A stretch of 64,000 nt of DNA. It comes from Anaerolineae bacterium. GTDB taxonomy: Bacteria > Chloroflexota > Anaerolineae > JAADDB01. The position numbers and the translations under genes are program-made. Shown one piece after another: positions 707 to 60,063 of this stretch. The notes beneath the pieces are model-generated. The model did no database searches. It was not told the DNA's origin and was given only the letters and a program-made list of their open reading frames with translations. The stretch spans positions 3,955 to 67,954 of the forward strand of contig WFQU01000129.1 of assembly GCA_015486845.1 (NCBI GenBank). The letters run 5' to 3'. Position 1 is the first letter of the stretch, and each line of letters opens with the position of its first letter.

Positions 707-2104
707 TCAGATAGCGAACCGGGTCGCGTTGGCACGGGCTTTTTCGATCTCTTGCCGGCGCTTTTCATAGCCGGAGCGCCCCAACAGCGCGTAGGTAGCG
801 ATTTTCCCCGCTTCTACCCCGGGTTGATCGAACGCGTCGATATCGTAAAGCTCGCCGCTGTATGCCGTAGCCACTTCCAGTGTGAAGAGAAGCTGTCCCA
901 AAGTATGGGCGTTCAGCTCCGGCAGGATAAAAGAGCCGTTGGCGCGCCTCGCTTCTGTCAACACAAGAGCGGTGGCGTCCCCTTCCGCCTGGAAAAGCTC
1001 GTTAAAACTGTGTTCGCCCAAATAATCGACGCCGCTTTGTCCCGTGGTCCAGCGAGGCATGGAAAGCTCATGGGCGAAACGTTCCACCCGCAGGAAAGTG
1101 ATCACTTTGTCGTACGGCCCTTCAATATATAACTGCACTTGAGAATGCTGGTCGGTGACGCCAAGCGCTTTCACCGGCGTCGGCCCGGCGAAAATCTCCT
1201 GGCCGGTGCGGTTCAGCCGCTTGCCCAACGATTCCGCCCACAATTGCCGGTACCAATCCGCCACGTCCCGCAACGCCTGGCTGTACGGCATCATCACGCT
1301 GATCGGCTTGCCCCGGCGGTAGCTGAGCCATTGCGATACCGCATAGAGCAGTGCCCGATTCTGCCAGATGTCCTCGGCTTGCGTCTCGGCGTCCGCTTGC
1401 GCCGCGCCGGCAAGTAGTGCGTCAATATCAATGCCGGCTACCGCAGCGGGGAAAAGCCCCACCGACGAAAGCACCGAAAAGCGCCCCCCGACCCCATCCG
1501 GCACGACGAAGCTGGAATAACCTTCCTGTTGTACCAGCGGCCGCAAGCTGCCTTTTCCCGCGTCGGTGGTGATCACCATCCGCTGGACGTAGCTATCTCC
1601 CAGCCGCTCTTGCAACGCATCGCGGAAAAGCAGAAATTGGCTCATGGTCTCGGCGGTGCTGCCGGATTTAGAAATGACGTTAAAGCAACTATCTTCCAGG
1701 TCAATGATGTCAAAGAAACCGGCCAACCAATCCGGGTCCACGTTGTCCAGCACGAAAAGCCGCGGCCCCGGTCGTTTTTCATCCGGCAACGTATTATGCC
1801 ACGGGTGCAGCAAGGCCGAGCGCAACGCAATACTGCCCAAAGCGCTACCGCCGATACCCAGGACAATGCAATTATGATAACGGCTGGCCATTTCCACTGC
1901 CAACTGTTTGATAGCGCCAACATTTTCCTGCTGGTATGGCAGGCCGAACCAGCGCAACCAGCCACTGCCCCGTTTGCGCTGCACATTGCGCACGGCAGAA
2001 CGCGCCCGTTCCGCCACGGCGTCGATTTCTTCCCGACGAATACCTTGTTCCTGGCCCAACTGCTCGGCCATCATATTGCTAAAATCATAAACGATACTTT
2101 TCAT
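707..2104 (-). CDS. pgi: Glucose-6-phosphate isomerase
   Basis: 465-aa ORF with the PGI family pattern (...GGRFSVLSSVGL..., sugar-isomerase domains). Confidence 0.85.
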   Translation of the reverse strand: MKSIVYDFSNMMAEQLGQEQGIRREEIDAVAERARSAVRNVQRKRGSGWLRWFGLPYQQENVGAIKQLAVEMASRYHNCIVLGIGGSALGSIALRSALLHPWHNTLPDEKRPGPRLFVLDNVDPDWLAGFFDIIDLEDSCFNVISKSGSTAETMSQFLLFRDALQERLGDSYVQRMVITTDAGKGSLRPLVQQEGYSSFVVPDGVGGRFSVLSSVGLFPAAVAGIDIDALLAGAAQADAETQAEDIWQNRALLYAVSQWLSYRRGKPISVMMPYSQALRDVADWYRQLWAESLGKRLNRTGQEIFAGPTPVKALGVTDQHSQVQLYIEGPYDKVITFLRVERFAHELSMPRWTTGQSGVDYLGEHSFNELFQAEGDATALVLTEARRANGSFILPELNAHTLGQLLFTLEVATAYSGELYDIDAFDQPGVEAGKIATYALLGRSGYEKRRQEIEKARANATRFAI

Positions 2105-2127
2105 GATCGGCTCCTCGAAATAATATA

Positions 2128-2503
2128 GAACGCTGATATCGCTGATGCATGCTGTTTCGACCGGCGATTAAAATCGCTGCTACGATTGCGAAACCTGCCT
2201 GCGCAGGTTATCTTTTAATCGCCGTAGGGCGATTTCGCAGGTGTTGCCCGCGACTTCCAATTGAACGCTGATATCGCTGATGCACGCTGTTTCGACCGGC
2301 GATTAAAATCGCTGCTACGATTGCGAGACCTGCCTGCGCAGGTTATCTTTCAATCGCCGTAGGGCGATTTCGCAGGTGTTGCCCGCGACTTCCAATTGAA
2401 CGCTGATATCGCTGATGCACGCTGTTTCGACCGGCGATTAAAATCGCTGCTACGATTGCAAAACCTGCCTGCGCAGGTTATCTTTCAATCGCCTTGGAAA
2501 AGG
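2128..2503. repeat. Tandem array of a 135-bp unit (two full copies plus about 0.8 of a third, near-identical) belonging to dispersed repeat family R1
   Basis: The unit gaacgctgatatcgctgatgcaYgctgtttcgaccggcgattaaaatcgctgctacgattgcgaRacctgcctgcgcaggttatctttYaatcgccgtagggcgatttcgcaggtgttgcccgcgacttccaatt recurs at 2128, 2263 and 2398. Each unit contains three short palindromes: gcgattaaaatcgc, acctgcctgcgcaggt and aatcgccGTAGggcgatt. Confidence 0.9.
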
Positions 2504-2509
2504 GTTCCA

Positions 2510-3463
2510 TCACGGCTTGAGCGTCGTGGCCACAATTACTTTATAGTCCAAGGGCTGGCTGATGAGTTTTTTGCTCAGCATCCAGGCGCTCACGTCTTTG
2601 ACCTCAGCCTCCGTAGGCAGTAAATTCACCGGGTAAGCCGGCACCTGATATTCCTTTTCGATGAAACCCGGCACCCGGCCTTTTTTCACCAGCAAAGGTT
2701 TGTATTTGTCGGGATGAGCATTGATCTCCGCGGATGCTTTGTACCACGCTTGCATAAATTTGGCTATATTGTGCGGCTTGGCGGCCAACGATTCAGTTCG
2801 AACAGCGAGCACAGATTGGGAAAACTGCGGATACTGGCTATCGTCCACAATCAGCTTCGCGCCTTTGGCGATAGCGCCGCTGGCCAGCGGCTCCGGCAAA
2901 GTCGCTGCAGCCACTTTGCCTTGCATCAAGAGCTCGAAACGCACCGGAATTTGCGTCACTTCGGTAATGCGAATATCCTTCGATGTCAACCCTTTCGCTT
3001 CCAACAGACGATCGGTAACATATTCGATGATAGTGTGCTGGGAAATAGCCACCGGCACGCCTTTCATAGCAGCCGGGCCGATGATATGGCCGCCGGGCGC
3101 GGCTAATATCCTGAACTGCGGCATTTTAGCCGTAGCGTGCATGAGCGTGCCGACAACTTTCAGCTTAGCTGTATCCTTATCAAACAGCCCCACGCTAATC
3201 AAATCCGTCAAAGCTCCGTCAACTTGCCCGGTCTGCAAAAGCGTGTCGCGTTCCTGGGCGCTTTTGACAAAAATCGCTTGCACTTGCAGTCCCTCGGCAG
3301 CAAAATAACCCTTATCTTGAGCCACGTAATAGGGCAGCGCGTCCATAATGGGCAATAACGCCACTTTAATGGATGTGTCTTCCTGCTTTTGACAAGCCAC
3401 CGTAGCCGGCAACAACATGGCTATAACGAGCAATAACAGCATCGAACGTTTCACGAAATACAC
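2510..3463 (-). CDS. ABC transporter periplasmic substrate-binding lipoprotein, NMT1/SsuA/TauA-like (nitrate/sulfonate/bicarbonate family)
   Basis: Signal peptide plus lipobox (LPATVAC) and an SsuA-like fold pattern. 317 aa. Confidence 0.65.
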   Translation of the reverse strand: MYFVKRSMLLLLVIAMLLPATVACQKQEDTSIKVALLPIMDALPYYVAQDKGYFAAEGLQVQAIFVKSAQERDTLLQTGQVDGALTDLISVGLFDKDTAKLKVVGTLMHATAKMPQFRILAAPGGHIIGPAAMKGVPVAISQHTIIEYVTDRLLEAKGLTSKDIRITEVTQIPVRFELLMQGKVAAATLPEPLASGAIAKGAKLIVDDSQYPQFSQSVLAVRTESLAAKPHNIAKFMQAWYKASAEINAHPDKYKPLLVKKGRVPGFIEKEYQVPAYPVNLLPTEAEVKDVSAWMLSKKLISQPLDYKVIVATTLKP

Positions 3464-4612: not shown

Positions 4613-4739
4613 CTCTCTTCATTGCTCCTTGTCTGCTATCATTTTGCGCTTAGTAAATCATAAATCGGCATAAATGTCCAACACGGAGCATTTCCCCTTT
4701 AGCTATTCAACGCCTGCGAGGAGGTGCACTTCTAAACAG

Positions 4740-5016
4740 GGAGTTATCATGAGCCTATGGCACACCACAGCGGCTGAAAACGAAGCGGCTGGTGTCAAGC
4801 CTTTAGGTGGGTTGGTGGGTCTACCACCGGCTAAAGCCTCGATGCCGGTACGGTGGCGGGGTACGTCAAAGTTGCGTCCGCTGCCAAAAGGCTGCTCAAC
4901 ACTAGCCCCCTTTCAGGGGGCTTCTTGGCGACGTAGCACGGGGATTTGACCCCCGTGCGCTCGGGCGGAGAACGCTGTCGATTAGAAGTTCAACTTCTCG
5001 CAGAAGTTGAACTTCT
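4740..5016 (+). repeat. Composite dispersed repeat made of module S (gagttatcATGagcctRYggcRcaccacagcggMtgaaaa), the 200-bp module R2 and the terminal palindromic hairpin H
   Basis: About 85 to 90 percent identical to the copies at 22210..22400 and 50211..50471, and to the inverted copy at 16014..16200. It ends with GAAGTTCAACTTCTcgcAGAAGTTGAACTTC at 4985..5015. The track ORF 4674..4949 lies inside this repeat and is probably spurious. Confidence 0.85.
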
Positions 5017-5059
5017 TAAAGATACTCTGCGCCTTTGCGCCGCTGCGTCAACTGATTTT

Positions 5060-5150
5060 CAAGGGAGTTATCATGAGCCTACGGCGCACCACAGCGGATG
5101 AAAATTAAGATCAGCGTGCATCAGCGTTAATCTGCGTTCTATTTTCAGAG
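5060..5150 (+). repeat. Second, shorter repeat block: module S followed by leader module L' (gatcagcgtgcatcagcgttaatctgcgttctattttcagaggag)
   Basis: Same motif set as 50527..50590, 25390..25435 and 45308..45335. Confidence 0.8.
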
Positions 5151-15725: not shown

Positions 15726-16013
15726 CCGTCTTTGAAAAAAAGACCTCTCCCCTGGCTTGCCGCCCAAAGGGGCGGCAAGCCTCCCCCTCCCCGTATCGGG
15801 GAGGGGGAAAAGCTAAGCGCAGCGCCTTCAAATTAGTCGTGTCATTGCGAGCGAAGCGACAGTGTGATCCTCTTTTTGGTCAAGCAATCTCCAATGATAG
15901 TGAGAGAGAGTGCCACGGCCCTGCCGGGCCTCGCAATGACAAACTTCTCTGAAAATAAGTTGATGCAGCAGCGCCAAGGCACAGGGCGTCTAAAAAAATC
16001 AGGCCTCCTTTTA

Positions 16014-16200
16014 GAGGTTCAACTTCTTCAAGAAGTTGAACCTCTCCGGCGTTTTCCGCCCGAGCGCACGGGGGTCAAATCCCCGTGCTACGTCGCCAAG
16101 AAGCCCCCTGAAAGGGGGCTGGCGTTGAGCAGCCCGTTTGCAGCGGATGCTGCCTTGACGTACCCCGCCGCCGCACCGGAATCGGAACCGCATATCCTCA
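16014..16200 (-). repeat. Inverted-orientation partial copy of the composite repeat (hairpin H plus module R2)
   Basis: GAGGTTCAACTTCTtcaAGAAGTTGAACCTC at 16014..16044, followed by the reverse complement of the R2 core (ccgcccgagcgcacgggggtcaaatccccgtgctacgtcgccaagaagccccctgaaagggggct...). Confidence 0.8.
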
Positions 16201-21870: not shown

Positions 21871-22055
21871 GATCGATTCCGCAGGACAGCGACCGGCTGG
21901 TCTAAGCAGCGACCAATGACCTGTTTAATTCGTTTGACCATCTTAGCTGGGGGAACGCTTTTCGGAAGAGTTGGAGGGGAACCGTACGGTTCCCCTGCTG
22001 GGAGCTCGAGGGTAGAGCCCTCGAAAAAGAAAAAGGGAGGCGAGATCATCTTTGA

Positions 22056-22400
22056 CTAGAAGTTCAACTTCTTCAAGAAGTTGAACTTCTAGAACGGCAA
22101 CATCTGCAAAATCGCCCTACGGCGATTAGCATGCAACCTGCGTAGGCAAGTTTCGCAGCTGTGGCAGCGATTTCTAATCGCAGGGCGAAGCAGCCTGTGT
22201 TGACCTACGTCCCATTCCGGTGGGCCGGCCCCTTGCCGCCGCGGCGGCGGGGTACGTCGGTCCGCTGCCAAGAGGCTGCTCAACACCAGCCCCCTTTTAG
22301 GGGGCTTCTTGGCGACGTAGTACGGGGATTTGACCCCCGTGCGCTCGGGCGGAGAACGCTGTCGATTGGAAGTTCAACTTCTCGCAGAAGTTGAACTTCT
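22056..22400. repeat. Repeat cluster made of hairpin H (22056..22093), an inverted R1-family copy (22089..22200), an R2 copy (22210..22365) and a second hairpin H (22369..22399)
   Basis: The sequence ctaGAAGTTCAACTTCTtcaAGAAGTTGAACTTCtag is followed by acatctgcaaaatcgccctacggcgatt..., then the R2 core and GAAGTTCAACTTCTcgcAGAAGTTGAACTTC. The track ORFs 22089..22286, 22161..22394 and 22280..22494 lie inside the repeats. Confidence 0.85.
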
Positions 22401-22514
22401 TTAAAAAATTGACCACGCATGTTGTTGTTGCCTGGAACGTTGTCGGCGTTGGGGATAGTTTTGCGCCAATCAGCCATGACATAACGGAGTCCATTTTTGA
22501 CTATTGTTTTTTTA

Positions 22515-22566
22515 TCTGCGTGCGCAGCCTGCGTTAATCTGCGTCCTATTTTTATTTTCAGAGGAG
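22515..22566 (+). repeat. Leader module L (ttatctgcgtgcgcagcctgcgttaatctgcgtcctatttttattttcagaggag), positioned 75 nt upstream of the fabD start
   Basis: Near-identical blocks occur at 50715..50782 (where it supplies the secG Shine-Dalgarno) and at 59135..59203. Confidence 0.8.
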
Positions 22567-22641
22567 ATTGATTTTAATCTCTGCACCTTAGCGGCTCCGC
22601 GTCGAGCTTTTAGTTCCGGCCTGTCCCGGTTAGGAGAATTC

Positions 22642-23592
22642 ATGAAAAAAGCAGCTTTTATTTTTCCAGGCCAGGGCTCACAATTCGTGGGCATGGGGAA
22701 ATCATTAGCCGAAAAATATCCGTTGGCCCGGCAAACTTTCGCCGAGGCGGACGAATTATTAGGCTTTCCGCTGAGCGAACTCTGTTTTGACGGCCCGGCG
22801 GAGCAATTGAACGATACCATCAACACCCAACCTGCCCTTTTCGTGGTCAGCATGGCCGCGTTTCGAGTCTTGCAAGCGGAACTGCCGGCATGGCAACCAT
22901 CAGCCGTGGCCGGGCACAGTTTAGGCGAGTACTCAGCCTTGACGGCAGCCGGCGCGCTTTCTTTTGCCGATGGCCTCCGTTTGGTACGAGAACGCGGCCG
23001 GCTGATGAAACAAGCCGGCGAAGTGTCCCCCGGCGGCATGGCCGCGGTCTTAGGACTGACAGCGGAACAAGTGGCAGCAATCTGCCGGGAAGCCAGCGAC
23101 GGGCAAACAGCGGTACAAATTGCCAATGACAATTGTCCCGGGCAGATCGTGATTTCCGGCCACAAAGAGGCGGTAGAACGGGCTTTGCCGCTTGCTCAGG
23201 CAATGGGCGCACGCCGGGTCGTGCCGTTAGCCGTGAGCATCGCTGCCCATTCGCCATTAATGGCGCCCATCGCCGCTGATTTTGCGGCTGCTATCGAGGC
23301 AACGCCGCTACACTTACCCACACTGCCGGTGGTGGCCAACGCCAGCGCCGCGCCGGTGCACAATCTAACCGAAATGAAGCAGCTTCTGGCCGCCCAATTA
23401 ACCTCGCAGGTGCGTTGGACTACATCGGTGCGCTATTTGCTAAATGAGGGCATCGACACGTTCATCGAAGTTGGCCCGGGCAACGTTTTAATCGGCCTGG
23501 TTAAACGCATTGACCGCAAAACAGAACGTTTAGCCATCGGCACAGCCGCAGAAATAGAGAAACATAAAGCGAAAACGGAGAAACAAGCATGA
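22642..23592 (+). CDS. fabD: Malonyl CoA-ACP transacylase
   Basis: The start MKKAAFIFPGQGSQ lies after an AGGAG ribosome-binding site. The GHSLGE active-site motif is present. Confidence 0.9.
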   Translation: MKKAAFIFPGQGSQFVGMGKSLAEKYPLARQTFAEADELLGFPLSELCFDGPAEQLNDTINTQPALFVVSMAAFRVLQAELPAWQPSAVAGHSLGEYSALTAAGALSFADGLRLVRERGRLMKQAGEVSPGGMAAVLGLTAEQVAAICREASDGQTAVQIANDNCPGQIVISGHKEAVERALPLAQAMGARRVVPLAVSIAAHSPLMAPIAADFAAAIEATPLHLPTLPVVANASAAPVHNLTEMKQLLAAQLTSQVRWTTSVRYLLNEGIDTFIEVGPGNVLIGLVKRIDRKTERLAIGTAAEIEKHKAKTEKQA

Positions 23593-24740: not shown

Positions 24741-25212
24741 AGGGAAAGATCGCCACAAGGCACGTATCTTAGCCTTGCAGGCACTGTTCGAGTTAGACAT
24801 GACCCAGCACACGCCACAACAAGTCATTACCGAGCGTTTGGACGGAGATAAATTAGGTCCCAAGGGCACAGCGTTTTTTCAAGACTTATTAAATGGCGCT
24901 TTAGCGCACCGTGAGGAACTGGATCGGTACATTCAGGAATTGGCGCCAGAGCGGCCGGTGTCGCAATTAGCGGCCATTGATCGCAATATCTTGCGCTTAG
25001 CGATCTGGGAAATTTCTTCCGCTAAAATGCACACCCCTTATCGTGTCGCGATTAATGAGGCGATAGAGTTAGCCAAGACTTTTGGATCGAAAAGCACACC
25101 CCGGTTTGTAAACGGCGTTCTGGGCGGCATGGTTAATAAACATCCTGAATCTGTAGTGACGTTGTTAGATATAGCAAAGGGGGAAAAAAGAAGTTCTGCA
25201 CGTAATACATAA
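24718..25212 (+). CDS. nusB: Transcription antitermination factor NusB
   Basis: NusB pattern (ARILALQALFELD...). The start overlaps the asp23 end and is ambiguous between 24718 and 24730. Confidence 0.8.
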   Translation: MPSPMHAKGKDRHKARILALQALFELDMTQHTPQQVITERLDGDKLGPKGTAFFQDLLNGALAHREELDRYIQELAPERPVSQLAAIDRNILRLAIWEISSAKMHTPYRVAINEAIELAKTFGSKSTPRFVNGVLGGMVNKHPESVVTLLDIAKGEKRSSARNT

Positions 25213-25284
25213 CGTGTTGCCGGAGGCTACATAACGGCTCAGCCCAGGTCAAATGGAACGCTGATGGGCCCAGCGACAAAAGTC

Positions 25285-25435
25285 ACGGCAACAATCTGCA
25301 AAATCGCCCTACGGCGATTAGCTTGCAGCCTGCGCAGGCAGGTTTCGCAGCTGTGGCAGCGATTTCTAATCGCCGGACAAGGCAGACTGCGTTAATCAGC
25401 GTTCTATTTTCCAGAGCATTCTATTTTCAAAGGAG
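25285..25435. repeat. Inverted R1-family copy (caacaatctgcaaaatcgccctacggcgattagcttgcagcctgcgcaggcaggtttcgcagctgtggcagcgatttctaatcgcc...) fused to leader module L' (gcgttaatcagcgttctattttccagagcattctattttcaaaggag), which ends 10 nt before the next start codon
   Basis: Direct comparison with 2128..2503 (reverse complement) and with 22089..22200. Confidence 0.8.
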
Positions 25436-26767: not shown

Positions 26768-26999
26768 GAACAGCCGCGGCAAGACAAGTGGCTCAGAGTA
26801 AACATTCAAGCCACACCGTGGTTTGGTGTAAGCTATTCAAATCCTCAACATGAGGACGCTGAGGACCGCAGATAAAGCAGAAAAGATCAGCGAAAATCAG
26901 CGTCATCAGCGTTCCATTTGATCTTAGCTGAGCACGAACGATCCTGTTTCTAAATATGTCCGTTCAATCAATATCTCACAAGCAAAAAGGAGGTTATTC

Positions 27000-31868: not shown

Positions 31869-32190
31869 TTCTCGCCTCCTTCGAAAATAGAACCCTGATG
31901 TGCGCTGATCCTATTCATTCGCAGCGCTGTGCCGACCTACGTTGCCGTTTTAGTGACCACACAGGTAGTCGCTTGGCGGTGAGCGCAGCGAGCCGTCCTT
32001 TCGGCATGGCTTTAGCCGACATGCCCGGGGCCAAAAGCCGCCGGGCTACATCAAGTTCAAGCCCGCTCAAGCGGGCTGCTTCACCCCAGCCCCCTTCAGG
32101 AGGCACCTCATCATGTAGCACGGAGCTTTGAGCTCCGTGTGCGCCCCGAAAAACAGCTTCATAGAACTGCGTAGTTTGACGCTGACAATT

Positions 32191-44765: not shown

Positions 44766-45363
44766 CTCTATTTTATTGAGACATGGGCACAAAAGTATAG
44801 CATAGCAAAACGTTTTCTCAAAAGCGTAGTTGCTAATAACCTCGGGCTATTGGTATAGCCAGTCGTGACTCATCCGAAAACAGGCTCACCGCGGAATACG
44901 CAACGTGCGCCGCGGTCAAATTAGTGTGATTTTAGCAACTATTTGCTTCCGAAACTGTAACTGCTCGTTTCTGATAAAACAGTGGCGCCGGCACGGGCCG
45001 GCGGCCGGCCTGTGCCGGCACGCAGACAGGCGCACCATAGCGGCTGAAAACGCCCCCTATCCCCCAACCTTGGGGGGAGCAACATGCCCCAGCCCTCCGA
45101 AAAAGGGTCTTGGCTACGCCGGATCTGGTTCGTTGCGGGCAGCACTCCCTCTCGCCACGCTGCGGTCTGCCGCTATCCTGTTGGCAACGAGCGCATAGCC
45201 CGTGTTGTCGTCGTGCGTTGGTATGCGCTTAATCGTGGCTAATCGTATGAGCCGGGTCTGATAACATGAATTTTCGTGTTGCTGGCGTAATATATTTGAG
45301 ATCAGCGTTGATCAGCGTTCTATTTTCAAATGAAACAAAATTGCTGGTCGCAAGCAGCTTTGT

Positions 45364-48454: not shown

Positions 48455-48556
48455 GTTATCATAAGCCCGACAAGGTGGAGAAGTTCAACTTCTGTCAGAA
48501 GTTGAACTTCTCCACCGGAAAGTTTTCTTGACGCTTTGCGTCGGCTATTTTCAAGG
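48455..48556 (+). repeat. Repeat block made of a partial module S, hairpin H (48479..48510) and leader module T (ttttcttgacgctttgcgtcggctattttcaagggacagc), ending 6 nt before the birA ATG
   Basis: GAAGTTCAACTTCTgtcAGAAGTTGAACTTC. The T module also occurs at 52955..53020 upstream of the PBP gene. Confidence 0.8.
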
Positions 48557-50210: not shown

Positions 50211-50782
50211 TTGTCACAAGCCCGCCACAGCGGCTGAAAAACTGCGGCTGGTGTAAGCCTTTAGGTGGGTTGGTGAGTCTATTACCGACTAAAGCTTCGA
50301 TTCCGGTACGGCGGCGGGGTACGTCAAGGTAGCGTCTGTTGCCAAGAGGCGACTCAACACCAGCCCCCTTTCTGGTGGCTTCTTGGCGACGTAGCACGGG
50401 CCTTTGACCTCCGTGCGCTTGGGCAGGGAACGCCGTCGATTAAAGTTCAACTTTTTGAAAAAGTTGAACTTCTTAAAGGAGACCTGATTTTGAAGGGACT
50501 GTTTCCGTATTGCCTGCGTAATATATTTGAGATCAGCGTTAATCAGCGTTCTATTTTCAAGGGAGTTATCATGGGCCTGCGGCACACCACAGCGGATGAA
50601 AACCTATGGCTGGACTCGAGCCTTTAGGCGGTTTTGTAGCGTTACCCCCGGCTAAAGCCTCGAGTCCGGCGCAATGGGAGCTATTTTCAGGGGAGAATCT
50701 GTTACTAATTTCTTGACCATTGTTTTTTATCTGCGTGCGCAGCCTGCGTTGATCTGCGTCCCATTTTTATTTTCAGAGGAGG
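50211..50782 (+). repeat. Largest repeat cluster in the window. It contains module S with the R2 copy (50211..50440), hairpin H (50443..50471), a second S with leader L' block (50510..50610), and leader module L (50715..50782), whose AGGAGG is the secG Shine-Dalgarno sequence.
   Basis: Direct alignment with the copies at 4740..5150 and 22160..22566. The upstream part of track ORF 50674..51012 is repeat sequence. Confidence 0.85.
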
Positions 50783-52683: not shown

Positions 52684-52701
52684 ACACGGTAACATTGGTG
52701 A

Positions 52702-52733
52702 GACGTTCAACTTCTCAAAGAAGTTGAACGTCT
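52702..52733. repeat. Hairpin H variant with compensatory outer-stem changes (GACGTTCAACTTCTcaaAGAAGTTGAACGTC)
   Basis: Same invariant core as the other copies. The outer base pair has switched from A:T to C:G. Confidence 0.85.
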
Positions 52734-52954
52734 TCACCGGAAAGCTCCGTGCTACGTTAATGGGAAGCCCCCTTCAGGGGGCTGAAGTCACGCAGCCCGC
52801 TTCAGCGGGCTTGGACTTGCTGTAGCCCGGCGGCTTTAGCCCCGGGCAGGTTTGCGGTGCGGCTTCAATTGCGGTTGTGATCAGCGGCAATGAATTAGGT
52901 GCCCCTGATGCGGCAGATTTAATCCTGAGACGGCAGGTCACGGACCTGCCTGGA

Positions 52955-58704: not shown

Positions 58705-59205
58705 AGACTACGGCCTGCCTTGTGCGCTGCGCGCGGACAGGCACACCATAGCGGATGAAAGTCGGCCGATAGCCGGTAGGCGTTCGCCGTTAGCAAATAT
58801 ATAAGCGGACGTTGCTGGAGCATTAATCGTGGGGAGCTGAAGCCGCACCGAAAGTGCCTGCAGCCAGGCGACCACCTACGTGGTCGCGACGACGCCAACG
58901 CACAAGAGCGAGACATTCAACTTCTGAGAGAAATTGAATGTCTGCACTGCGGTTGAAACCGCGGCACAGGAAACCGGCAAAGCAGTTCGCCCGTGCGTAG
59001 TGCAGTTTTGGCTGCTGGCAGCTGGAGCTTAGCCTTTTGGCAGCCTGGAAGCGTCGACACCGGCTAAAGCCTCGACTCCAGTGCTGGGGAAAGTGTCGCA
59101 CTTTTTTCGCGACGACATCTTCGGGATCGTTTTTTGACCGTTGTTTTTTTATCTGCGTGCGCAGCCTGCGTTTATCTGCGTCCCATTTCATTTTCAAGGG
59201 AGGGC
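58705..59205. repeat. Repeat cluster made of an S-like module (58705..58760), hairpin H variant GACATTCAACTTCTgagAGAAATTGAATGTC (58912..58942) and leader module L (59135..59203)
   Basis: Alignment with the other copies. It marks the boundary of an islet that looks lower in GC. Confidence 0.8.
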
Positions 59206-59786: not shown

Positions 59787-60063
59787 AGTCGGCCACGTTA
59801 CCCTCCTTCTGGGAAGCCTATGCCTCCCTTGGCGAAGACGTCAGACGCCAGGCGAGGAAAGCCTTCGATTTATGGATTCAGAACCCATTTCTCATCCATC
59901 TCTGCACTTCAAGTGCATCAATTGCGAGGAAGATATTTGGTCTGTCCGGATAACCCGACAATATCGTGCAGTAGGTGTCTGAGAAGTAGGTGTCTGAGAA
60001 GGAGATGTCGTCACCTGGTTTTGGATTGGTCACCATGACCATTACCAACGCTTCTTTTCGTGA
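59783..60063 (+). pseudogene. RelE/ParE-superfamily toxin gene disrupted by a 1-bp deletion (frameshift at about 59888..59892) and a 15-bp tandem duplication (59971..60000) that introduces in-frame TGA codons
   Basis: Frame 1 reads MKSATLPSFWEAYASLGEDVRRQARKAFDLWIQNPF. Frame 2 reads HPSLHFKCINCEEDIWSVRITRQYRAVGV*EVGV*EGDVVTWFWIGHHDHYQRFFS*. Together these rebuild a canonical toxin of about 90 aa (...NP..LH.K......WSVRI...YRA.......WFWIGSH..Y). Confidence 0.6.

Follow-up and report, generated by a model that had tools for sequence, protein, structure and literature searches.

R1, a probably REPIN- or MITE-like palindromic repeat of intergenic spacers, forms a tandem array upstream of glucose-6-phosphate isomerase in an uncultured Anaerolineae bacterium

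The stretch of DNA analysed here, 64,000 nt of contig WFQU01000129.1 from an Anaerolineae bacterium (hereafter the window), carries a tandem array of a palindromic unit, named R1, in the spacer upstream of a gene for glucose-6-phosphate isomerase (PGI), and diverged single copies of the same unit at two further sites. R1 is probably a non-coding, non-autonomous palindromic repeat, akin to REPINs (doublets of repetitive extragenic palindromes, REPs) and to miniature inverted-repeat transposable elements (MITEs), which is dispersed in the intergenic spacers of a clade of Anaerolineae known only from metagenomes. It is grouped with these types, and with REPs and bacterial interspersed mosaic elements (BIMEs), because it is small and non-coding, is bounded by terminal inverted repeats and has complementary arms, is present or absent at orthologous sites with no target duplication, and is found both in mosaics with other repeats and in tandem clusters.

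R1 in the window and in related genomes

The array was delimited with Tandem Repeats Finder (TRF) at 2128..2493, with a period of 135 bp, 2.7 copies, 97% matches, 0 indels and a score of 704. Direct sequence comparison resolved it into two full units and a partial unit of 96 nt, at whose end (2493) the similarity stops. An earlier note on this DNA, made from the sequence alone, had described a 135-bp head-to-tail triplet at 2128-2503; the array is real, but it holds 2.7 copies and is shorter than proposed. The same note had counted two to three substitutions between copies, which agrees with the three that separate units 1 and 2 and the two that separate unit 2 from the partial unit. The partial unit opens exactly with GGCGATT, the 3' arm of hairpin 1; the rest of that hairpin (5' arm and loop) and helix P0 are missing. 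In total, 366 of the 405 bp of spacer separating two minus-strand genes are covered by the array, and the region runs, read in gene sense, from the end of a solute-binding protein gene (its stop codon) through 16 nt, the partial unit, unit 2, unit 1 and TATATTATTTCGAGGAGCCGATC to the ATG of PGI at 2104 (Table 1). The unit-unit junctions at 2258-2263 and 2393-2398 read GCGTTC/AATTG, which creates a CAATTG palindrome; in the genome S014_12, a heptamer element unrelated to it likewise has AATTG after its terminal ATCAGCGTCC (L007:274-279).

The array has no coding capacity, as stops occur in six of six frames of every unit, and a coding repeat is ruled out by these stops together with the period of a second array (172 bp, described below), which is not divisible by 3. 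No tRNA or tmRNA genes were found, and the Rfam scan of the window returned no family at gathering score; in E-value mode the sub-threshold matches to CRISPR-DR28 and DUF3577 were generic hairpins only. Neither strand of the array unit contains a sigma-70-like promoter, and its sole terminator-like site, a weak one, consists of hairpin 2 and a T-run on the strand antisense to the genes.

Two dispersed relatives of the unit were recovered in the window by blastn, at 22096-22197 (80% identity) and 25280-25404 (76%), and covariance modelling gave them fuller extents. These are the diverged copies of about 75% identity which the earlier note had placed at 22089..22200 and 25285..25395. Its description of them as inverted, opposite-orientation relatives is correct with respect to the DNA strand, but relative to the downstream genes they are co-oriented with the array units: the flanking genes lie on the minus strand at the array and on the plus strand at both dispersed copies, where fabD and a cDPGS-like GTPase gene follow, and since the strands of R1 and gene switch together, the orientation of R1 towards the downstream gene is equal at all three sites. 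At 25 kb, a perfect terminal inverted repeat of 10 bp marks the two ends of the copy, with GAACGCTGAT at 25256-25265 and ATCAGCGTTC at 25395-25404. Beyond the array and the 22-kb and 25-kb sites, no further R1 copies were detected in the window by blastn, nhmmer or the covariance model, and nhmmer and the covariance model found no additional copies over a total of 152.5 kb of sequence; weak model matches at L016:252-366 and at 52765-52812 of the window belong to a different GTAG-type repeat. Over the 80-nt core, identity is 98% among the array units, 94% between the two dispersed copies and 83-84% between array units and dispersed copies. The array is therefore attributed to local amplification rather than to three separate insertions.

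Orthologous sites in the closest available relatives were reached through homologues of PGI and of the cDPGS-like gene on syntenic contigs (protein identities of 92%, 89%, 85% and 77%; pieces of 4-13 kb). In the 92% relative (L016/L017), nusB and the cDPGS-like gene are 74 bp apart with no R1 between them, and similarity to the window restarts exactly at the Shine-Dalgarno sequence GGAG(G/A)TTGTTTCAATGGAG before cDPGS; in the 89% relative (L018) the two genes are separated by 282 bp of unrelated DNA, also without R1. Between lpdA and fabD, where the window holds a 772-bp mosaic of four repeat families including R1 (21871-22642), the gap in L018 measures 75 bp, and L016 carries a PHP-domain gene followed by a gap of 119 bp and no R1; no remnant of that gene (L016:6426-7351) was found in the mosaic by tblastn. 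Upstream of PGI, the 85% relative (L013) shows a heptamer module and no R1 within 124 nt of sequence, and the 77% relative has a different, divergently oriented neighbour gene and no R1. The converse case is given by L018, with an R1 copy upstream of lpdA where neither the window nor L016 has one. R1 is thus insertion-polymorphic among close relatives. Its absence from the orthologous sites examined led us to reject a conserved cis-regulatory leader, and argues for a mobile or rapidly turning-over repeat.

On a broader scale, when 185,579 species-representative genomes were scanned with a pattern, the Anaerolineae metagenome-assembled genome (MAG) S014_12 was the only one with R1, at four loci with six copies. 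Proteins homologous to the cDPGS-like one of the window, at about 75% identity, are likewise annotated as Anaerolineae/Anaerolineales. Three of these loci (L005-L007) are single, near-identical elements of about 200 nt, which start with AACTACTYAGCC and end in CTTAGTAG. The fourth, L004 (WFQT01000323.1, 186-615), is a second tandem array (period about 172 bp, about 2.6 copies, 95%), which bears out the proposal that R1 exists both as single units and as arrays. Its unit consists of the R1 core and a 60-nt linker carrying a hairpin of its own, and, like the one in the window, this array begins with a copy cut short near the 3' arm of hairpin 1. The L004 array lies upstream of a co-oriented gene, with the extended -10 promoter-like sequence TGGTATAAT and then the gene start following it. 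A separate metagenome scan yielded two true relatives (L009 and L010, VFSW01) and three chance matches in coding sequence, and one more copy is present in GCA_027008045.1 (L018, 465-606). Viral and plasmid collections gave no R1 matches, and a phage or plasmid origin was rejected on this ground. Another repeat of about 150 nt is present in two copies in S014_12 (L006:839-991 and 4886-5051, 78-92% identity), one of them directly upstream of the R1 element.

Full-length copies are closed by terminal inverted repeats of 8-12 bp, which are a perfect 10-bp pair in L018 (CTACTCAGCC / GGCTGAGTAG), 11-12 bp in L009 and L010 (TGTTTTRAAAT / ATTTGCAAAACA) and GGCCCAGC / GCTGGGCC in L004. Folded as single-stranded DNA and compared with shuffled sequence, complete copies reached z = -5.1, -3.6 and -3.8; the copy at 25 kb (z = -5.1) forms a closing stem around four small hairpins. 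In the 80-nt core, identity between the window and L018 is 89%, as compared with 78.5% for the cDPGS coding DNA of the same pair; against S014_12 the core reaches 93%. Claims on the family as a whole are based on about 13 copies from four lineages, and the alignment is shallow because the genome and metagenome scans gave only four and two true loci.

Table 1. Coordinates of the R1 copies, their internal elements, the flanking genes and the other repeats (window positions unless a locus is named)
Feature	Position	Strand	Basis or remark
R1 unit 1, full, 135 nt, nearest PGI	2128..2262	-	TRF, direct comparison, covariance model 125 bits
R1 unit 2, full, 135 nt	2263..2397	-	TRF, direct comparison, covariance model 121 bits
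R1 partial unit, 96 nt, farthest from PGI	2398..2493	-	TRF, direct comparison
Dispersed R1 copy, between lpdA and fabD in 772-bp mosaic of other repeats	22073..22210	+	covariance model, 114 bits
Full-length dispersed R1 copy, between nusB and cDPGS-like gene	25256..25404	+	blastn, covariance model (model extent 25270-25402), terminal repeat
Hairpin 1, AATCGCC-GTAG-GGCGATT (gene-sense loop CTAC)	2217..2234, again 2352-2369		palindrome search, alignment
Hairpin 2, AACCTGC-N4-GCAGGTT (2192-2209: loop CTGC)	2192..2209, again 2327-2344, 2462-2479		palindrome search, alignment
Hairpin 3, GCGATT-AA-AATCGC	2164..2177, again 2299-2312, 2434-2447		palindrome search, alignment
Long-range perfect 12-bp inverted repeat, CGGCGATTAAAA / TTTTAATCGCCG	2162-2173 with 2213-2224		palindrome search
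Direct heptamer pair ATCAGCG-AT-ATCAGCG(TTC) = ATCAGCG-AT-ATCAGCGTTC, gene-sense 3' end of unit	2131..2146, also 2266-2281, 2401-2416	-	motif match
TATATTATTTCGAGGAGCCGATC: AT-rich tail and Shine-Dalgarno, abuts PGI ATG	2105..2127	-	continues heptamer / TATTTTCA / GGAG module found before other genes
Glucose-6-phosphate isomerase (PGI) gene, downstream of array	707..2104	-	PF00342, E = 6.5e-35
NMT1/THI5-like solute-binding protein gene, upstream of array	2510..3463	-	Pfam; stop codon 16 nt before partial unit
Double palindrome sites	4983-5027, 16012-16056, 22057-22101, 22367-22411, 48478-48522, 50440-50484, 52700-52744, 58910-58954		
Heptamer module sites, window	2120-2146(-), 5110-5147, 22514-22554, 25395-25412, 26886-26914, 31882-31909(-), 45301-45328, 50532-50559, 50729-50762, 59151-59184		
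Heptamer module sites, relatives	L013:60-115; L016:1-60(-); L007:270-365		
Mini-ORF-like module sites	4731-4780, 5055-5104, 50553-50602; compare 45018-45049, 58729-58760		

Anatomy of the unit and conservation of its pairing

The R1 core measures about 80 nt and contains three separate palindromes of 14-18 nt, while the R1 unit measures 110-200 nt and its full copies 135-200 nt. The palindromes had been described as three nested ones per copy; they are indeed present, but they stand side by side, the exception being the long-range pair that encloses hairpin 2. The 12-bp helix formed by this pair competes with hairpins 1 and 3. The stem of hairpin 1 is identical in 12 of 12 aligned copies, the copy of L018, found later, having a degenerate 3' arm (GGCGTTT), and its GTAG loop is not invariant, reading CTGC and CGGC in relatives. 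A further GTAG, located 5' of hairpin 3, is confined to the array units and is replaced by GTGG or GTTG in other copies. The heptamer motif at the 3' end of the array unit also builds the terminal inverted repeat of the 25-kb copy.

Conservation of the structure was examined on these 12 copies from three lineages (the window genome, S014_12 and VFSW01) and five helices, namely P0, P4 and hairpins 1-3. Alignment cells were paired in 93% of cases, against 18-41% with the partners slid, and in six pairs both partners had changed, where the slid controls gave 0-2; each of the six changes separates the VFSW01 copies from the rest. Compensatory changes occur in P0, P4 and hairpin 2, which reads AACCGAC / GTCGGTT in the VFSW01 relatives; hairpin 3 is almost identical across the 12 copies. 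In the long-range helix (CGGCGATTxx / yyAATCGCCG), the two pairs beside the invariant heptamer covary across lineages, being AA:TT in array unit 1, GA:TT with a G.T wobble on the gene-sense strand in array units 2 and 3, AG:CT in the 22-kb and 25-kb copies and in L004c, GG:CC in L006, L007 and L018, and GA:TC in L009 and L010. Closing stems which are wholly different between lineages nevertheless stay complementary, and pairing within a strand is therefore constrained.

Nothing ties this constraint to one strand. Seven copies are co-oriented with their flanking genes and three are antisense (p = 0.34), wobble pairs and A.C mismatches are divided about evenly between the strands in a tally of the pairing tables, and the covariance model also matches the reverse strand of every copy, at 58-83 bits. 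Folded as RNA, the copies reach modest z-scores of -1.0 to -2.7. All ten R1 sites examined lie between co-directional genes, but this is uninformative, because co-directional pairs account for 85% of gene neighbours in the window (P = 0.21).

Classification, proposed history and alternative explanations

REPs carry an unpaired tag, GTAG or CGTC, next to one end of their stem, and their clusters are tandemly reiterated with flanking DNA across phyla that include Chloroflexi, from which GTAG repeats have been reported (Di Nocera 2013, PMC3733652). As in REPs (PMC3733652) and the BIMEs of E. coli, R1 is found near stop codons, is mixed in mosaics with other short repeat modules and is sometimes in tandem with flanking DNA. 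REPs lie mainly between unidirectional or convergent open reading frames (ORFs); the R1 sites are between unidirectional ones, as the gene order of the window would lead one to expect at P = 0.21. The REP unit is nevertheless a single palindrome of 20-40 bp, as opposed to a unit of 110-200 nt whose core of about 80 nt holds three palindromes, and R1 is without the defining unpaired tag at the stem end. For this reason the earlier suggestion of a GTAG hairpin reminiscent of REP elements is not supported in that form: GTAG is here the loop, and a loop that varies across the family. The canonical unit of GTAG plus hairpin is carried in the window by another family (4925-4960, 16062-16097), and a canonical REP is ruled out for R1 by unit size and tag position.

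REPINs, which are REP doublets mobilised by RAYTs (REP-associated tyrosine transposases; PMC3116915), resemble R1 in being short, non-coding, palindromic and extragenic, in having complementary arms and in leaving no visible target duplication. They also form clusters, 16 ordered tandem ones of REPIN type being known in P. fluorescens SBW25 (Bertels & Rainey 2011, PMC3116915). The R1 arrays are similar to these clusters in that near-identical units are repeated in tandem together with their flanks, at 2.7 x 135 bp (97%) in the window and about 2.6 x 172 bp (95%) in L004, and in that units within an array are closer to each other than to dispersed copies. Unlike a REPIN, R1 is not composed of two inverted REPs of 20-40 bp, but of three different hairpins and a closing stem; its arms are not complementary between the closing stem and the covarying inner inverted repeat, which gives a multibranched fold, and GTAG, in place of tagging a stem on its 5' side, lies in a loop or else at the outermost 3' end of R1. 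A REPIN/RAYT system also includes a cognate RAYT gene of the Y1 type, present once and usually with the repeats beside it.

R1 shares with MITEs a length below 300 bp, the lack of coding capacity, perfect 10-bp terminal inverted repeats and insertion polymorphism, and it lies beside gene starts, where it appears to supply or replace the sequence up to the Shine-Dalgarno site. Bacterial examples of MITEs are Correia/NEMIS, ERIC, RUP and Nezha. The differences regard the target-site duplication and the pattern of conservation, both considered below, and no parent insertion sequence (IS) sharing the R1 ends was found in the sequence examined (the 64-kb window and the 4-13-kb pieces of relatives). 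The mycobacterial interspersed repetitive units (MIRUs) are minisatellite units of about 50-135 bp of the variable-number tandem repeat (VNTR) type, with short ORFs that couple the translation of flanking genes. R1 is similar to them in that the unit is found both singly and head-to-tail, at several loci, in spacers between co-directional genes; it differs in having stops in every frame and in being strongly palindromic. Intergenic palindromic repeats have been described for a few Chloroflexi, and our literature search found no description of such repeats for Anaerolineae. R1 is accordingly filed as an undescribed family of a general kind already known, that of palindromic non-autonomous intergenic repeats, and in no named family, because it departs from REPs in size and tag and from classical MITEs in target duplication.

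The most likely history can be outlined as follows. Full-length R1 consists of a closing stem, formed by the terminal inverted repeat, around a core of three hairpins and a competing long-range helix, and the array unit is a 5'-truncated R1 onto which ATCAGCG-N2-ATCAGCGTTC is fused, the heptamer module found at the end of R1 copies in this genome. A copy probably inserted or recombined directly upstream of the Shine-Dalgarno region of PGI, beside the heptamer module, and may then have been duplicated by unequal recombination or replication slippage, with gene conversion now homogenising the units. The spread of R1 would depend in trans on a transposase acting on hairpin or single-stranded DNA; an enzyme of the Y1/HUH type (RAYT or IS200/IS605) fits better than a DDE transposase, because no target duplication is visible and the ends are rich in hairpins. 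Once transcribed in the spacer between the binding-protein gene and PGI, the hairpins of the array could modulate mRNA stability or read-through, as those of REPs and BIMEs do; by analogy with these elements, PGI might be affected through mRNA stabilisation, partial termination or translational context.

Several observations weigh against the classification of R1 as a REPIN- or MITE-like repeat. No target-site duplication was seen at five filled sites (L005, L006, L007, L018 and the 25-kb copy) nor in one pair of filled and empty sites, and no transposase domain was detected among the 30 window proteins scanned with Pfam, which are housekeeping or unassigned. The termini vary by lineage and the interior is kept, the reverse of typical MITEs, and a core conserved above the level of coding DNA points to selection on it or to horizontal exchange. 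Finally, the sample amounts to about 13 copies, with no mobility event directly observed.

The reality of the array can be judged from three other assemblies in which the identical PGI protein is on record. The 405-bp spacer of L001 (NCBI MAG GCA_027008065.1) is identical to that of the window, and the one of L002 (ENA assembly ERZ23495671) has the same length and three substitutions, so that the tandem junction is present in both; L003, a Logan contig, starts inside unit 1, a break typical of a repeat branch in an assembly graph. By name, the assemblies with the array appear to share one sample (SAMN12239303 / SRR10312495), and 2.7 copies are thus a minimum, the junction being supported and the copy number not independently fixed. 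An artefact of assembly, affecting the array or its copy number, would be in keeping with this common sample, with the end of the Logan contig and with a period near short-read length, at which identical units would collapse. It is improbable all the same, as L001 and L002 reproduce not only the spacer length but also the unit-unit junction and the unit-specific substitutions, De Bruijn assemblers merge repeats and do not create them, and an independent array of like architecture is present in another genome from another study (L004). L002 differs from the window at four positions over 4,848 bp, three of which fall in the array at unit-distinguishing positions (binomial p = 0.0016) and leave the L002 units more uniform. 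Gene conversion would account for this pattern, and so would mixed strains that the assemblers resolved in different ways; together with the contrast in identity between array units and dispersed copies, the pattern upholds the proposal of recent amplification or gene conversion. A degenerate or spacer-less CRISPR-like array, to which hairpin 2 lends some resemblance by scoring 27-31 bits against the Rfam model CRISPR-DR28 (E about 1e-3 in a 511-nt search), is effectively refuted: the score is below the gathering threshold of 35 bits, against a model that describes a generic GC hairpin of 24 nt, what lies between the copies of hairpin 2 is itself repeated at 97-98%, with no unique spacers, the period of 135 bp compares with 23-48 bp for CRISPR repeats, and no Cas domain was detected in the 30 window proteins scanned. 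The lack of spacers had already been pointed out, and it extends to the whole period, repeated at 97%.

Other explanations concern the function of the unit. R1 might be a functional structured RNA, either a cis-acting leader or intergenic switch or a small RNA gene, with the array placing several copies on one transcript. A core kept better than coding DNA would suit it, and so would the compensatory changes in P0, P4 and hairpin 2, the covarying long-range helix that is mutually exclusive with hairpins 1 and 3, and the location of all ten sites between co-directional genes, where copies are probably transcribed; yet this location equals the window baseline, R1 is not retained at orthologous positions even at 85-92% protein identity, three of ten copies are antisense to the flanking genes, and the downstream genes (PGI, fabD, the cDPGS-like gene and lpdA) have no shared function. 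The missing sigma-70-like promoter, the weak antisense terminator-like site, the even division of wobbles and A.C mismatches between strands, the low fold z-scores and the lack of an Rfam match at gathering score also speak against an RNA, which we regard as unlikely. Double-stranded DNA sites for a putative regulator or nucleoid protein, with R1 and the heptamer module making the array a multi-site platform that controls PGI, are rather less plausible still. Each unit contains the half-site GGCGATT four times, ATCAGCG forms direct repeats, no change affects the AATCGCC / GGCGATT half-sites in the 12 aligned copies, and ATCWGCG heptamers spaced by 9-11 bp directly precede the Shine-Dalgarno sequence of many genes (13 exact 10-mers against 0.57 expected), including the orthologous PGI of the 85% relative; but two palindromes hold the half-sites tail-to-tail and head-to-head respectively, so that a single dimer would not read both equally, and the compensatory changes in hairpin 2 and in flanking pairs are expected for intrastrand pairing rather than for a fixed operator. 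Furthermore, the sites of R1 change from one close relative to the next, the genes next to them have unrelated functions, and no regulator gene is linked to R1. It is also conceivable, with a likelihood as low as that of the RNA, that the 80-nt core is an undescribed structured module, made of RNA or of single-stranded DNA, that adopts either of two exclusive folds, one with hairpins 1 and 3 and the other with the long-range helix and possibly a pseudoknot, and that is recognised by a dedicated protein; lineage-specific closing stems and arrays would then present one or several cores in operon transcripts or at replication forks. Both arrays, in the window and in L004, open with a copy truncated at about the same point of hairpin 1, and a variant of this module, in which an HUH enzyme nicking hairpin loops makes the arrays, would explain first copies cut at the hairpin 1 3' arm. 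A REPIN- or MITE-like repeat remains the reading we consider probable.

Neighbouring repeats and significance

Other repeat families accompany R1 in the window. A double palindrome, AGAAGTTCAACTTCT-N3-AGAAGTTGAACTTCT, forms a perfect 15-bp hairpin of which each half is itself palindromic, and has about nine intergenic occurrences (sites in Table 1); two of its copies flank the 22-kb R1 copy as inverted repeats. A family of about 188 nt with 70-90% identity (4797-4984, 22181-22368, 50255-50442 and, inverted, 16047-16184) contains the canonical GTAG-tagged REP-like unit GTAG-CACGGGG-ATTTGA-CCCCGTG, and a related GTAG repeat is found at 32035, at 52741 and at L016:252-366. A 62-nt hairpin repeat, GGCTGG..GCCTTTAGG...CCGGCTAAAGCCTCGA..CCGG, has four copies with 66-79% identity (4787-4848, 50245-50306, 50608-50669 and 59020-59081). 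A module resembling a Shine-Dalgarno sequence plus mini-ORF, GGGAGTTATCATGAGCCTACGGCGCACCACAGCGGATGAAAA, was also noted, one copy of which putatively reads M-S-L-R-R-T-T-A-D-E-N-stop. Short tandem repeats reported by TRF are located at 24950-24987 (19 bp x 2.0) and 59970-60009 (15 bp x 2.7, AGTAGGTGTCTGAGA).

The heptamer module, which forms the end of the array unit, consists of ATCWGCG at 9-11-bp spacing, followed by TTCTATTTTCA and RRGGAG, and mostly abuts a Shine-Dalgarno sequence and start codon; the excess of 10-mers given above refers to exact matches to ATCWGCGTYC. It is itself insertion-polymorphic, being found before the PA14 gene in L016 and not in the window, and in S014_12 the heptamers are arranged as inverted arrays. 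The module may be a shared terminus of several repeat families, or an expression element.

R1 likely causes contig breaks in metagenome assemblies, as one Logan contig ends within the array and one JGI contig extends no further than 124 nt upstream of PGI, and the array could serve as a VNTR marker for strain typing of these uncultured organisms. If the core were recognised by a protein or active as RNA, it would represent a new class of motif; on present evidence R1 is an element of an ordinary kind. It offers a clean case of presence/absence polymorphism combined with local tandem amplification, within a dense mosaic of at least five families of intergenic palindromic repeats in some Anaerolineae.

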